From Narcine bancroftii (Eukaryota), in assembly GCF_036971445.1 (NCBI RefSeq), contig NC_091476.1:27528001-27592000 (forward strand): DNA of 64,000 nt, read 5' to 3'. The position numbers and the translations under genes are program-made. The notes beneath the pieces were generated by a model. That model made no database searches, was not told where the DNA came from, and saw only the letters and a program-made list of their open reading frames with translations. Positions within the stretch are counted from its first letter, which is position 1; every line of letters starts with the position of its first letter. Shown here in pieces: positions 4,521 through 24,292 of the stretch.

Positions 4521-4810
4521 CTGGAAACAAGAAAAACAATTAAAGGAAAATTTCAACTCAATGTGAGTCATTAGTCTCTTAATTTAATTTATTGCTCTTT
4601 ATTTACATACTTTACAGAAATACTAGATTTCTTAAACAATGATGGCACTGTACAATTATTGCATTTATACAAGACGCAGCTAAATTTTCCAAGAGGATGT
4701 GCTGTGCTGTTAAATCCAGCACATTTCAATCGTAAATATGATCTTTATCTCAATGCAAAGGCAACCCAGATGGACAGACTAGTGACATTATCACTCAATA
4801 GTTTAACTAC

Positions 4811-4878
4811 TTCTGTATTCAAGAACAATTGGTTCTGTATTCAAGAACAATTGGTTCTGTATTCAAGATCAATTGGTT
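4811..4878 (+). repeat. 22-bp tandem repeat, 3 copies
   Basis: TTCTGTATTCAAGAACAATTGG x3. Confidence 0.9.
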
Positions 4879-4934
4879 CCCATTATATGATCAGTTATCT
4901 CACAAATAAACAGCAATCTGTGCTAGCAAAAAAT

Positions 4935-5605
4935 TGTAAGAGACTCCCACATCTATACACACATTCCCTTCTCTGCCTTCTGCAGGGACCACTCCCTCTT
5001 TGACTCCTTTATCCACTCCTCCCTCTTCATCAATTGATCCCTTGGCACCCATCCTTGTGACCACAGGAGATGCTCCACTTGAGCTCACTCCTCCTTCCTC
5101 ACCACCATTCAGAGCCCCAAGCAGACCTTCCAAGCGAAGCAACATCTCCCTTGTGAATCTGCAGAGGTGATCTACTGCATCCGGTGCTCCTGCTGCGGTC
5201 CCCTGTACACCGGAGAGACTGACCAGACTGGGATATCACTTTGTTGAACACCTCACATCTGCCTGCTGCAATAGTGTCGATCTCCCAGTGGCCACCTGTT
5301 TCAATACTCCTTCTCATTTCCTTGTGGGTACGTCTGTGCATGGTCTCATGCACTGCCAGACTGAGACCACTGGCAAATTGGAGGAAAACCTCGAATTCTG
5401 TCTGGGTACCCTAGAACTGGATGGCATTAACACCGTCTTCTCTGATTTCGGTTAACCACCACCACCCCACCCTCCTCGTCTTTATTCTAACCGTTCCTGT
5501 TCTTTGCTTATTCATTGAAGGCAGGCTCAGGCCCAAAACGTAGGCAATATTATCTTTATCGCTGTAAAACCGGCTGATTTCCTCCAACATTTCGGTGTGT
5601 TTTTA
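4935..5605 (+). mobile_element. Penelope-like element 3' fragment (GIY-YIG endonuclease remnant and terminal repeat)
   Basis: VIYCIRCSCCGPLYTGET...LGYHFVEHL motif; ends in GCTGATTTCCTCCAACATT. Confidence 0.82.
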
Positions 5606-5699
5606 GCTCTTTCCTATTTTCACCCAGTCTTTGTACCCGTTACCTATGATACCTTTCCATGTCTTTTGTTTTCCCTATTTTTTTTGGACTAAATGAGCA

Positions 5700-6290
5700 C
5701 AAAGGAACCCCGCATTAGTGGGTCGCCTCTCCCCTGTCCCGGGGACCCCTGGGTCCCTCGACCTATCCAAAGGGAGATGAAACACGTGGCTGCACGGCCG
5801 CCCCATCGCCGCAATTTTTCCATTCGCCCGCACCCTTACCGAACACGGAACGCAGCGAGCGGTCGATGGCCGGGTCCCGCACCAAGTTCGCCATGGCCAC
5901 CGCTCGTCGCCCCGCTTCCGCTAAGAAACGGAAGCCAAGACGCTCATCCGTCCGCCCGTCCCCAACACGCAGTTCCGGGCAGCGTCGGCAGGAGGCTGTA
6001 CCCAGCGTCCCTTGCGGTTTGATCAAAACTAATGGATGGAGGGTTAACACGTGGAATGGGAGTTGTGTCCTGATGCCAAGAGCAGTTCAGAGGTTTCTCC
6101 ATCATTGGAGGGAGGGGAAGAGGGGGGAAGGGGGGGGAAGGGAGGGGGAAGGGGGGGGAAGGGGGGGAAGGGGGGGGAAGGGGAAGGGGGAAGGGGAAGG
6201 GGGAGGGGCCTCAAGTGGTCAGGGAACGTGACTGAAGTCTTACAGTAAATGTTGGAGGAATTCAGCACATCTCTCAGCGTCCATAGGAGG
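5700..6290. promoter_or_regulatory. CpG-island / putative bidirectional promoter of CSTF2 and TRMT12, including a G-rich polypurine tract at ~6107-6208
   Basis: Local CpG enrichment around CSTF2 exon 1; the divergent TRMT12 first coding exon is ~2.1 kb from the CSTF2 ATG. TSS positions cannot be determined from sequence. Confidence 0.7.
5840..5894 (-). CDS. CSTF2: CSTF2 (cleavage stimulation factor 64 kDa) coding exon 1
   Basis: GCCATGG Kozak start at 5894; translates MANLVRDPAIDRSLRSVF+G, matching the CstF-64 N-terminus; GTAAG donor at 5839; lies in a CpG-rich region. Confidence 0.95.
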
Positions 6291-6295
6291 TAAAT

Positions 6296-6302
6296 GTATA
6301 TA

Positions 6303-6335
<33 letters not shown>
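6296..6335. repeat. (TA)n microsatellite
   Basis: Directly visible. Confidence 0.9.
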
Positions 6336-7059
6336 CTTAAAGGTATAAGCAAAAAAAAAACAGGAAGGTGGCCTTAATAAAAGCAGAGTGAAAAAATGGG
6401 AGGGGGGGGCAGTTATTAACTGGATACAATAAGAGGAAAGGTGAGGATTGATTTTGGCTCTGTGAAAGAAGACAGAGAGAGACAGTTAGGGGAAAGGCCA
6501 CAGGGGGAGGAAGAAGGGGTGGTTTAACGAAAACTGGAGGTTGATGTTATGCCATCTGGTTGGAGGGTGCCCAGGCAGAACAGGAAGTGTTGTTCCTCCG
6601 ATTTGCAGGTGGTTTCAGTCCGCCTGTGCATGAGGCAACGGAATGGGACGGAAAATTGAACTGGGACCTTTCTCAAAGGGTCTGGTTGCTCATTGTCATC
6701 ATATTTTGTTACTTTAGCTAGGCCTCAAGACTCCAAAAAAAATGTGCTGATTATGGCTGAACTTCCAGTACATTCAGACATTGACCAGTTTCCTCATCTG
6801 ACCTCCACAATGACGGTTTTAAATCAACGACAAAGGAAAAAAAAACTATTGCTAAGATGCCTTAAAGCACTGTATAGTTGGTTATTTTATGAAGCCATTG
6901 TGACCAGCTTGTCATTAAGTCATCTTCATAGCTCCAAAGTGGAGCTATTAATCATCATCCAATCAATCAGATCACTCAGTAAAAGACCTGTACCTTGTCC
7001 ATATGATGGTGCTAATATTCAGGAAAGGTGGTGAAAATAGTGCCCATTGCAAATATACT

Positions 7060-7855
7060 TTTCCTTTTCAATCATTTCTATAATAATAAATAGAATACAA
7101 TGAAGCAAGTATACTTTTGTCATTTTCCTGTACCATGAGCCACACTGCAGGCTGCACAGAGAATTCTGTACTCAATATTATACATATACAAAAGAGAGAA
7201 ATATAAGAAAACTGGTGAAATACAGAAAATAAATATTCAATCATAATGCACAACTTAAGAGTCTTTAAATGAGTCTCCGATTGAATCTGTTGTTTAGGAG
7301 TCTGATGGTGGAAGAGGGTAACTATTCCTGAACCTCGTGATATGAGTCTTGTGGCACCTACACCTCTTTCCTGAGAATAGTACATGCCCTAGGTGGTGTG
7401 GATCCTTGATCATTGCTACTGCTCTTTGATGGCACCGTTCCCTATATATGTTCTTGATGGTGTGGAGAGTTTTTCCTGTGATGTACTGGGCTGTGTCCAC
7501 TAACTTTTGCAAGGCTTTCCAGTCAGAGGTATTGGTACCTCCATATAAGGCCATGATTCAGCCAGTCAGCACACTTTCCACCACAGAACTGTAGAGGTTT
7601 GCCAAGGTTTCCAATGTTATACCTAACCTCTGCAAACTCCTGAGGAGACAGATGCTGATGTGCTATCTTCACAATGGCATTAGTATATTGGGTCCAGAAA
7701 AGGTCCTCCAAGGTAGTGACTCCCAGGAATTTAAATTTGGTCACCTTCTCCACCTCTGATTTACCAATCATCACCTGATTGTACACATCTGGTTTTCTCT
7801 TCATGAAGTCAACATTCAGCTCCAAAGTGAATGTCAGGTTGTTGGTGCACCACTA
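7060..7855 (-). mobile_element. Rex1/Babar-type LINE 3' fragment
   Basis: ELNVDF, VEKVTKFKFLGV, ALQKLVDTAQYITG and IKDPHH motifs. Confidence 0.82.
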
Positions 7856-16620: not shown

Positions 16621-17111
16621 GTTCTTTGCTATGTGACTATGATTCTCTTTATTTCCCCCCCCCCATCCCCCATAATCTTACATGATCTTCCTTGTAAAGA
16701 ATTTATACATCGATGCGTTAAAATTATTCAAAGGCTCTGCATCCACGGTTCTTTGAGGAAACAAGAATGAAACAAGCAAAAATCACTTCATATCTACCTT
16801 AAATATTCTGCAAAAGGAGACATCCTTTCCTGATCCACCTTCTCAAGATCTCTCAATATGTTAGATATTTCAATCAATTTGCCTCTGCCTCTTCAACTCT
16901 AATGAATACACACCAGTCTTATTCAGTTTGTCCTCGTAAGATAAACTGTTCCTTCTTGATGATAAAGTTTAGTCACCCCTAATTTGTTGTCTTGTAGGAG
17001 CTGAGTGATTCATGATAAACAGGTTTGGAAATCAGGGAGGCAAAGTTAATGAACTAATATAAAAATTATAATTCTGATACTTTTTTTTTATTATTGTTCC
17101 ATTTGTTGCAG

Positions 17112-17262
17112 AGCCAGAAGTATGGAAGGTGGTTGCTAATGTACTAAAAGTAAAACGCATTGCAAAAGCAGGCAGAATATCTGCCAATGGCTTTCGTACT
17201 CCAAGGGTGACTTTAATGCTGGGAGACGATGCTTGGGTCCACCACATTGACAATGGCATCAG
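17112..17262 (+). CDS. TRMT12: TRMT12 coding exon 4
   Basis: ttgcag acceptor; PEVWKVVANVLKVKRIAKAGRISANGFRTPRVTLMLGDDAWVHHIDNGI(R); GTGAGA donor; 151 nt. Confidence 0.95.
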
Positions 17263-17439
17263 GTGAGAATGGAATAAAGATATTTAAATGACAACCAAGA
17301 CCCAAATAATCCAAGGATGTGCATGTAACATTGTAACTGGGTAAAGACCGACTGGTTCCTCCTTGTGATTATCTTTATCCATGTATAATAAATGTTTTCC
17401 TTTAAATTAAAGGAAGCTATAGCACGCCATGCCTTCTGA

Positions 17440-21942: not shown

Positions 21943-23337
21943 AAAAGAGATACTTTCATAATAAATCTTTTTTGTGCTTCATCCAGTTTGAGGCCTAATT
22001 CTTTACTTATATTACTTAGAAGAAAGATCTCTGGATTTTTTGGTATGTTGCTTTTTGTGATTTTATTTAATACCTGATTTAGATCTTCCCAAAACTTTTC
22101 CACTTTCTCACATGCCCAAATTGCATGTACTGTTGTTCCCATTTCCTTCTTACAGCGAAAACATCTATCTGATACTGTTGGGTCCCATTTATTTAACTTT
22201 TGGGGCGTGATATATAGCCTGTGTAACCAATTATATTGTATCATGCGTGACCTCGTGTTTATTGTATTTCTCATAGTTCCGGAGTATAGCTTTTCCCATA
22301 TTTCATTTTTTATCTTTATGTTTAGATCTTGTTCCCACTTTTGTTTGGGTTTACAGCTTATTTCATCATTTTCTTTCTCTTTCAGCTTGATGTACATGTT
22401 TGTTATAAATCTTTTAATTATCATTGTGTCTGTAATCACCTATTCAAAGCTGCTTCCTTCTGGTAACATCAGTCTGCTTCCCAATTTGTCCTTTAAGTAG
22501 GTTTTCAGTTGGTGGTATGCAAACATTGTACCGTGACTTATTCCATATTTGTATTTCATTTGTTCAAATGTTAATAAATTATTTCCCAAAAAGCAATTTT
22601 CTATTCTTTTAATCCCTTTTCTCTCCCATTGTCTAAAGGAAAGGTTATCTATTGTGAAAGGGATTAGTTGATTTTGCGTCAATAATAATTTTGGTAGTTG
22701 GTAATTTGTTTTTTTCCTTTCTACGTGAATCTTCTTCCAAATGTTGAGCAGATAGTGCATATCTGGTGAACTTCTATATTGCACCAGTTTTTCATCCCAC
22801 TTATAAAGTATATGTTCTGGTACCTTCTCCCCTATTTTATCTAGCTCTATCCTGGTCCAATTAGCTGTAGCAAAAAAATGTATAATGTCAACCTGGAAAT
22901 CAGAAGAGAGCCTGAGAGTACAGCAATGCTACATCAAAATGAATAAATGTATTCCATTGGAAAAAATAACATATAATTTAAAAAATAAAGTCACATTATT
23001 CGAAAAAATTTGGGAACTGTACATGGAACACAACAGAGAGGGCCTACTGCGGACCTCCACCCCCTAAAATGATAGAATGAGAAGAAGACGAAAAGAACTG
23101 ACCCAGTGTGTAAAAGTAGATGACACAATTTTCTTGTTTATTTTCATTGTGTGATGACATTGTTTAATGGGTTTATTGTATTGTATATGTTGAATGTTTA
23201 ATGGGTTTGGAGGGAGGGGGAAAAAAAGAGAGAAAATGACATTGTGTATATTCAAGAGGGAAATGTTTGTGTGTATTTTGGTTAATAAGGTTCATAGTGT
23301 GAAAAATTTTTTAAAAATTTTAAAAAGAGATACTTTC
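21943..23337 (+). mobile_element. 5'-truncated, 5'-inverted L1-clade LINE with a 15-bp TSD
   Basis: The ORF2 C-terminal region with the zinc knuckle CFRCKKEMGTTVHAIWAC is on the minus strand (21957-22860), continuing as LAVAKKCIMSTWK...FEKIWELY on the plus strand from 22861; TSD AAAAGAGATACTTTC at 21943-21957 and 23323-23337. Confidence 0.92.
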
Positions 23338-23998
23338 CATAAAATGCATCTCCACTATAACATGGGATTACATGGGGGAATAGGTTCACGTTATAGAAAG
23401 TCGTGCTGTGGATGTTTATGTTCCTTAACATATATACGATCTTTTTAATACATTTAAAATGTGTTATCCAACACTATAATTAAAACACATTATTTATAAC
23501 ATGTTATAAATTATTTCAATTTGAACTTTGAACTCAGTCTGTCAGACAACAAATATTTATGCTGCAAATGAAACACAATTTTTTAATTGTGGTTTTTATC
23601 AGTTACAGTGCAGAAACACATGGTTATAATCTATGTTATTGTGAATCTGAAACAGAGATAACCAAAGTGTAGGAACTTGTACAAGTCTTGATAAAGTGTC
23701 CCAACCCAAAACATTAATTCCCCATTTCTATCCATGGACCCTGCTGCCTCACTGTTGCATCCCTCCAGATTCTCTTTGATTGCAGTAGAAAATAAATATT
23801 GCACTGTAGGTTACTTGTTAATGATGTGGCTATATTTTGGAGTGATATCATTACCTCAGGAACCTTATAAATTGTACATGTTATGGGTAAGCTATATTCT
23901 ATTTTGCAGAACAACTAAATGTATTTTGCATTTGAGAAGAAAGTGATCATTTCATTAATAACATTAATGTAGCTGTGTCTCTATGTATTCAATTATAG

Positions 23999-24108
23999 AT
24001 ATACATTTGATATTACAAAATGCATGTTCTCCTCTGGAAATGTCACAGAGAAGCTTCGAATCAGCTCTTTTGACTGCACAGGAGAGGTGGTTGTGGATAT
24101 GTATGCAG
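23999..24108 (+). CDS. TRMT12: TRMT12 coding exon 5
   Basis: attatag acceptor; YTFDITKCMFSSGNVTEKLRISSFDCTGEVVVDMYA(G), the start of the SAM-binding motif; GTAATG donor; 110 nt. Confidence 0.95.
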
Positions 24109-24292
24109 GTAATGTTGTGAATTAATAGCTGAGCTACAGTGAGCTGAATGAGCATGTTCTATGTATAGACTCTGAAGTCGAAGCATTTGCAAGCATAACT
24201 GGAACCAGGTGTTGGCCAGTTGACTCATCTTGACTGCATTTTCTTTGAATAAGAATGGTGGAAGAGATGGAGTAGGTGATTAGAAAAAATAC

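Follow-up and report, generated by a model that had tools for sequence, protein, structure and literature searches.

5' inversion is usually presented as a hallmark of mammalian L1 elements. How, then, did an L1 copy in a ray, Narcine bancroftii, come to have its second open reading frame (ORF2) split between the two DNA strands? The window considered here is a 64-kb stretch of the N. bancroftii genome, in which the copy occupies positions 21943-23337. The original prediction was that this copy arose by twin priming, a model said to originate with Ostertag and Kazazian in 2001. The geometry of the insertion, the microhomology between the target and the element RNA, and the inversion rate of the family all support that reading. 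The probability that the window copy was made by twin priming, and that about 1 in 6 copies of this ray L1 family were inverted likewise, is placed at roughly 0.9.

Twin priming has been described, in the available sections of the articles cited, for human 5'-inverted L1, with deletions or duplications at the flip (PMC2912911, PMC12016303), and for mammalian genomes (PMC4476161). Among the titles and abstract openings listed in literature searches, which for twin priming covered 40 of 106 papers, none dealt with 5'-inverted L1 of cartilaginous fish; inversions of zebrafish L1 may be counted in Kojima and Okada (2009) or in the work of Ichiyanagi (2006, 2007, 2008). The terms 'inversion' and 'twin' are absent from the searchable part of a vertebrate L1 review (PMC5381506), and in the accessible parts of PMC5389967, PMC3747384, PMC6007223 and PMC11371274 twin priming occurs in the reference lists only.

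The insertion and its host gene

The insertion sits in coding intron 4 of TYW2/TRMT12, as had been proposed, between coding exon 4 (17111-17263, plus strand, upstream) and coding exon 5 (23997-24110, plus strand, downstream). The gene has seven coding exons within positions 8019-31748 of the window; the mammalian TYW2/TRMT12 gene is intron-poor. Its final exon agrees without a difference with a protein labelled Narcine bancroftii at NCBI, and the next matches are to Pristis, Mobula and sharks. The host, predicted to be a cartilaginous fish, is a batoid (electric ray). The single insertion is an ordinary dead intronic copy, without sign of an effect on TYW2.

Within the 64 kb of the window the 15-mer AAAAGAGATACTTTC has two occurrences and no more, one at 21943-21957 and an identical one at 23323-23337, both on the plus strand; its reverse complement is absent. 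The chance of such a 15-bp match is 2.7e-9 per position. These are the two copies of the target-site duplication (TSD), and the first nick would be in the bottom strand at 5'-TTTT/GA-3'. Directly after the 5' TSD copy lies an inverted block of 904 nt (21958-22861, minus strand), which holds 301 codons of the C-terminal region of ORF2, including the CCHC/zf-RVT region, and ends in ...AQKRFIM. The zf-RVT match in this block has an E-value of 7e-05, which is under the curated cut-off of Pfam. The block contains a single in-frame stop, TAG at 22442-22440, in agreement with the count of one given earlier. The forward block (22861-23067, plus strand) begins LAVAKKC and carries the final 68 codons of ORF2 and the stop codon at 23065-23067. 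It is followed on the plus strand by the L1 3' UTR (23068-23301), the last part of which is the terminal motif of the family, and by an A-rich tail with T runs (23302-23322), of the same kind as in 29 other copies. The split of ORF2 into opposite-strand blocks within a perfect TSD, found nowhere else in the window, is therefore as first described. The window copy is a dead, 5'-truncated and 5'-inverted L1 copy inside one TSD.

The two blocks had also been called adjacent in the protein. This is nearly true, but in all 29 of the best other copies the blocks are collinear and a spacer of exactly 7 nt separates them; the window copy has lost these 7 nt of the element. The inversion point itself is at 22861 (no strand), where a 1-nt microhomology (T) makes one base common to both blocks. 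The last 2 nt (TC) of the 5' TSD copy are complementary to element sequence beyond the inverted block, and this TSD end matches 2 of the 7 missing nt.

Could the locus instead be a head-to-head pair of independent insertions, or an assembly error? Genuine opposite-strand nested L1 insertions are present in the family sample described below (L166 and L153), and neither the inversion point nor the right junction is bridged by any short-read contig listed, a matter of lack of cover and of swamping by family copies. Nor did the contigs listed from short-read runs X1-X6 show a joint across the insertion or an empty site, either in organism B, where the flanks are scarcely covered, or in organism C. 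However, a single TSD encloses the two blocks together, no separate tail belongs to the inverted block, and in element coordinates the blocks come within 7 nt of each other. The same copies are equally close to both blocks, at 95-96% for the inverted block and 95-96% for the coding portion of the forward one. An assembly error is further opposed by a 305-nt short-read contig, probably from the assembled individual, which runs from the flank through the TSD and 25 nt into the inverted block with zero differences. Both versions of this explanation are thus highly improbable, and a single inverted insertion is the preferred reading of the locus.

Identity and age of the L1 family

A search of the N. 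bancroftii genome gave about 7000 first-look candidates, from which the 29 best other copies were fetched. Full-length copies are about 6.1 kb long and have two ORFs. The proposed L1 identity held for both of them. A reverse transcriptase (RT) piece from one copy (L098) matches human L1 ORF2p with E=1.7e-63 and R2 proteins with 2e-16 or weaker, and its RVT_1 match in Pfam is 1e-36. ORF1 matches the L1 ORF1p structure PDB 2ykp with E=1.7e-4 over residues 13-147, and its first match in the Atlas is a Transposase_22 cluster (0.92, 194 features); a Pfam search of ORF1 at 0.01 gave no family match. Fragments of ORF2 match Exo_endo_phos (E=1.6e-4 and 1.1e-3) and zf-RVT (E=7e-5 and 2.6e-3), all under the curated Pfam cut-offs. 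The traits of the L1 clade that were found are an APE endonuclease at the N-terminus and a CCHC region at the C-terminus of ORF2, an A-rich tail and dispersed insertion.

An RT tree was built from 35 regions, namely the ray copy, 26 species-labelled regions and the best 8 unlabelled of 120 hits listed, with a midpoint root. The ray RT groups with fish L1-like proteins, including that of Kryptolebias, in one clade with support of 100/99, and four rodent L1s stand apart. It is 50-58% identical to the RTs of the fish-type L1s. In contrast to human L1, the ray element resides in a cartilaginous fish and its RT is only about 40-42% identical to that of rodent L1. Like the fish-type L1s (Kryptolebias P0133 and the unlabelled P0123-P0135), the ray family combines two ORFs, a length of about 6.1 kb, an APE endonuclease, an RT, a CCHC region and an A tail. 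Since the ray RT falls in the fish L1 clade, the family is a fish-type L1 and not a mammalian import, and horizontal transfer from mammals was rejected on this placement. The tree has no labelled Tx1 row; the type of ORF1 and insertion without a fixed target speak for L1 rather than for its sister lineage Tx1.

The window copy had been described as young. This is only partly correct: the copy differs from the 29 best other copies by 3.7-4.9% and has 14 near-private bases in 904, so that 'young' was an overstatement. Among 70 L1 copies the closest pair is 2.9% apart and the median nearest neighbour is at 4.7%. The L1 family appears to be extinct and to predate the RTE family that is nested within its copies.

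Frequency of 5' inversion in the family

How common is 5' inversion among the sister copies? The survey was anchored on an exact 33-nt motif at the 3' end, which has 1068 matches in the genome. The main sample consisted of the first 100 matches by position, all on contig C1, which were fetched with their upstream DNA. Two copies (L163 and L196) extended beyond the DNA fetched and were set aside, leaving 98 of 100 classified, and opposite-strand neighbours with a 3' end of their own (L166, L153 and L096) were scored as separate insertions and not as inversions. In this sample from one contig, 17 of 98 copies are 5'-inverted (17%, 95% CI 10-26%), 18 reach the 5' end and 63 are plain truncated. 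Sixteen of the inverted copies came from BLAST and one is a 22-nt inversion; every breakpoint is different. A second sample, chosen by likeness to the forward block and drawn from several contigs, gave 8 inverted copies in 39, with one inverted copy common to both samples. The 29 copies discussed above were chosen for covering the inverted block and do not constitute a rate sample. These two samples supply the fraction of inverted family copies that had been proposed as a check, and its outcome is strongly positive.

A TSD of 14-17 bp is found in 12 of the 17 inverted copies. The remaining five have no clear TSD (none in L205, L207 and L144; 8-9 bp in L131 and L162). The same threshold was passed by 15 of 18 full-length copies, 33 of 63 truncated copies and 3 of 300 mismatched control pairs. 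The median TSD is 16 bp for the family and 15.5 bp for the inverted copies. For human germline L1 insertions, the available text of PMC12016303 gives 165 inversions in 897 (18.4%), and 21.9% for somatic insertions. The ray rate does not differ from the human germline rate (17/98 vs 165/897, Fisher p=0.89).

A second explanation is that a truncated L1 inserted normally and its 5' part was inverted afterwards by genomic rearrangement. The family is old enough for nested insertions and internal deletions to have accumulated in its copies. However, the outer breakpoint coincides with the end of the TSD in the window copy and in 12 of the 17 inverted copies of the sample, and this position largely refutes later rearrangement. 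Of 100 copies, a single one has an internal inverted piece away from the 5' end (L209, 82% identical), and a CR1 family of similar divergence in the same genome has no inversions (0/54). The microhomology between target and RNA, described below, is also far above permutation. Later rearrangement is therefore a very remote prospect, and twin priming is retained as the reading of the inverted copies. The inverted piece in L209 (oriented 7174-7253) is an 80-nt stretch of older L1 (82%). The full-length copy that contains it had landed in an older, opposite-strand L1, and the piece is possibly a templated insertion from the flank.

Junctions and target site

If the freed end of the target primed a second cDNA on the element RNA, then, under the model as given in PMC2912911, the 3' end of the top strand should be complementary to the RNA immediately 3' of the inverted block. 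Over 13 inverted copies with a TSD, including the window copy, the microhomology between target end and RNA has a mean of 1.92 nt, against 0.47 nt when permuted, and 0 of 20000 permutations reach 1.92. It is absent in 3 of the 13. Plain truncated junctions (n=31) have a mean of 0.58 nt and none at all in 20 of 31; in this lack of 5' microhomology the plain truncated ray copies differ from human L1. The window copy has 2 complementary nt between target end and RNA (4 of the first 5-6). Its own microhomologies, 2 nt at the TSD/element end and 1 nt at the inversion point, are each within chance.

At the inversion point, 1-4 nt are common to both blocks in 11 of 14 junctions, a raw count given without a null expectation and made on the 14 junctions, among 18, that could be resolved (all but L151, L171, L193 and L197). 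By BLAST edges (n=16) the flips comprise 13 deletions, 2 duplications and 1 flush junction. The gap or overlap at the flip is within about 31 nt in 13 of 16 copies, and the other three are deletions of 380-1427 nt.

In 59 TSD-bearing copies the family prefers TC/AAG on the top strand (CTT/GA on the bottom strand), with the left edge uncertain owing to the A tail. The bases are A at +1 in 52 of 59, A at +2 in 50 of 59, G at +3 in 31 of 59 and C at -1 in 32 of 59. This preference is unlike the TTTT/AA target of human L1; the nick in the window, TTTT/G, is nevertheless one of the human endonuclease sites that appear in the available text of PMC12016303. In other respects the inverted ray copies resemble human twin-primed L1: an inverted 5' block and a forward, tailed 3' block lie in one TSD of about 15 bp, there is microhomology at the target junction and, by raw count, at the inversion point, the flips carry small deletions or duplications, and the rates are alike (17% vs 18.4% in the germline).

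The order of the enzymatic steps at this locus can be proposed from these features. ORF2p would nick the bottom strand at TTTT/GA, and the first cDNA would be primed from the A-rich tail. The top strand would then be nicked 15 nt from the bottom-strand nick, and the freed 3' overhang, ...CTTTC, would pair by 2 nt with the same RNA about 490 nt from the RNA 3' end, just ahead of the point where the first cDNA stopped. A second cDNA of 904 nt may have been primed there. The first and second cDNAs would finally be joined through the 1-nt microhomology, with the loss of 5-7 nt.

A third explanation dispenses with a second priming by RT. The first cDNA or the second strand would break or fold back, and would be joined in inverted orientation by microhomology-mediated end joining of the host. 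In sequence alone, twin priming and this repair route look alike, since both give the same geometry. End joining likewise leaves microhomologies of 1-4 nt, such as those at both junctions; four copies (L117, L223, L151 and L197) are more complex than simple twin priming; and the accessible portion of PMC4245944 reports that inversions depend on the host. However, the blocks adjoin in 13 of 16 copies, which two primers on one RNA predict directly. Full-length TSDs are retained (median 15.5 bp), as the two-primer model predicts, and CR1 in the same host shows 0 inversions in 54 copies. End joining is accordingly considered unlikely, if the least improbable of the three alternatives, and twin priming remains the favoured mechanism.

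Several copies have structures beyond the simple model. In L117 (G000:C1:35355879-35358911) the inverted part consists of two pieces, separated by a loss of about 77 nt, and the TSD around it is 15 bp long. In L223 (G000:C29:14761300-14768800) an inverted block of 139 nt comes from within the forward block, with a 277-nt overlap; for twin priming, a duplication of this size is unusual. The junctions of L151 and L197 are untidy. Large internal deletions or rearranged 5' parts are seen in L186, L217, L190, L156 and L087; in L186, for example, element positions 1-363 are joined to 5681-end within a 16-bp TSD. These five could be template switches, spliced copies or deleted subfamilies.

Comparison with RTE and CR1 in the same genome

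Does the frequency of inversion depend on the host or on the element? In the available text of PMC4245944 (Yamaguchi et al. 2014), the second priming is said to need a long 3' overhang of 10-20 nt. According to the same text, inversions were obtained only with human L1 in human cells, with none for human L1 in chicken DT40 cells or for ZfL2-1, and with one Nimb-2 insert. In the accessible part of PMC6007223, which cites Ichiyanagi and Okada (2008), the TSD measures 13-15 bp for L1 of mammals and zebrafish, and 10-12 bp for RTE.

Two further LINE families of the ray were sampled in the same motif-anchored way as L1, with 68058 genome-wide matches for the first and 3576 for the second. On the basis of protein motifs, and not of a family search, these are taken to be an RTE and a CR1 family, respectively. 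The 68058 exact matches to the 33-nt 3'-end motif of RTE amount to about one per 49 kb, and many copies are 98-99% alike; the RTE family is a very recent and very large burst.

Inverted copies number 5 of 93 in RTE, with 7 further copies at an edge left unclassed, and 0 of 54 in CR1, with 4 further copies unclassed. A TSD score of at least 10 is reached by 25 of 84 RTE copies and 0 of 43 CR1 copies, and the RTE TSD, where present, is mostly 8-11 bp. L1 is inverted more often than CR1 (p=0.0007) and more often than RTE (p=0.012). With spans of at least 300 nt the counts are 17/82 for L1, 5/66 for RTE and 0/36 for CR1 (L1 vs CR1 p=0.0014; L1 vs RTE p=0.035; RTE vs CR1 p=0.16, not significant), and with spans of at least 500 nt L1 vs RTE falls to p=0.09; spans are not measured alike across the families, as the L1 figure includes the inverted part and nested inserts. 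Outside the 5 of 93, two 5'-inverted RTE copies are nested in L1 copies (L196, oriented 4760-6669, and L215, oriented 5728-6559). Their TSDs are 12 and 10-11 bp, the host L1 gives the sequence before insertion, and one of them lost about 1.15 kb at the flip. Like these two, L247, L252, L327, L108 and L308 are young RTE-type copies with a 5' inversion.

The order of inversion in this one genome, L1 (16-bp TSD) above RTE (about 10 bp) above CR1 (none), fits the overhang model as set out in the available text of PMC4245944. In contrast to the cell assays in that text, an endogenous non-mammalian L1 here reaches the human inversion rate in the germline of its own host. We infer that how often a LINE family inverts depends on how long its staggered cut is. 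The original prediction had offered two options, that the mechanism is either much older than mammals or convergent. This choice is weakened, and inversion is better regarded as something that LINEs with a long staggered cut do in general, since RTE in the same genome also inverts (5/93 and the two nested copies).

Conclusions

The mechanism discussed here is a known one; what is new is its occurrence in another lineage at a rate measured by the family survey. The single copy in TYW2 is ordinary, while the statistics of its family and the contrast between three clades are of moderate specialist interest. About one in six of the sister copies is inverted, as in humans, so twin priming is likely not a mammalian speciality. 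Whether it is ancestral and independent of the host in LINEs that cut with a long stagger, with a rate that tracks overhang length within one genome (L1 17%, RTE 5%, CR1 0%), is a proposition that we hold to be evenly balanced.

If it is true, a fish-type L1 that has been separate from mammalian L1 since the divergence of sharks and bony fish inverts at the human rate, and the order of rates in one genome would put the overhang model to a test in nature, where cell assays have not settled it. A rate of 17% with the same junction statistics would indicate a deep vertebrate, or general LINE, behaviour, and would point to control by overhang length rather than by mammalian host factors. In the genomes of sharks and rays, repeat annotation and the calling of small inversions should then reckon with split copies of this kind by the thousand.
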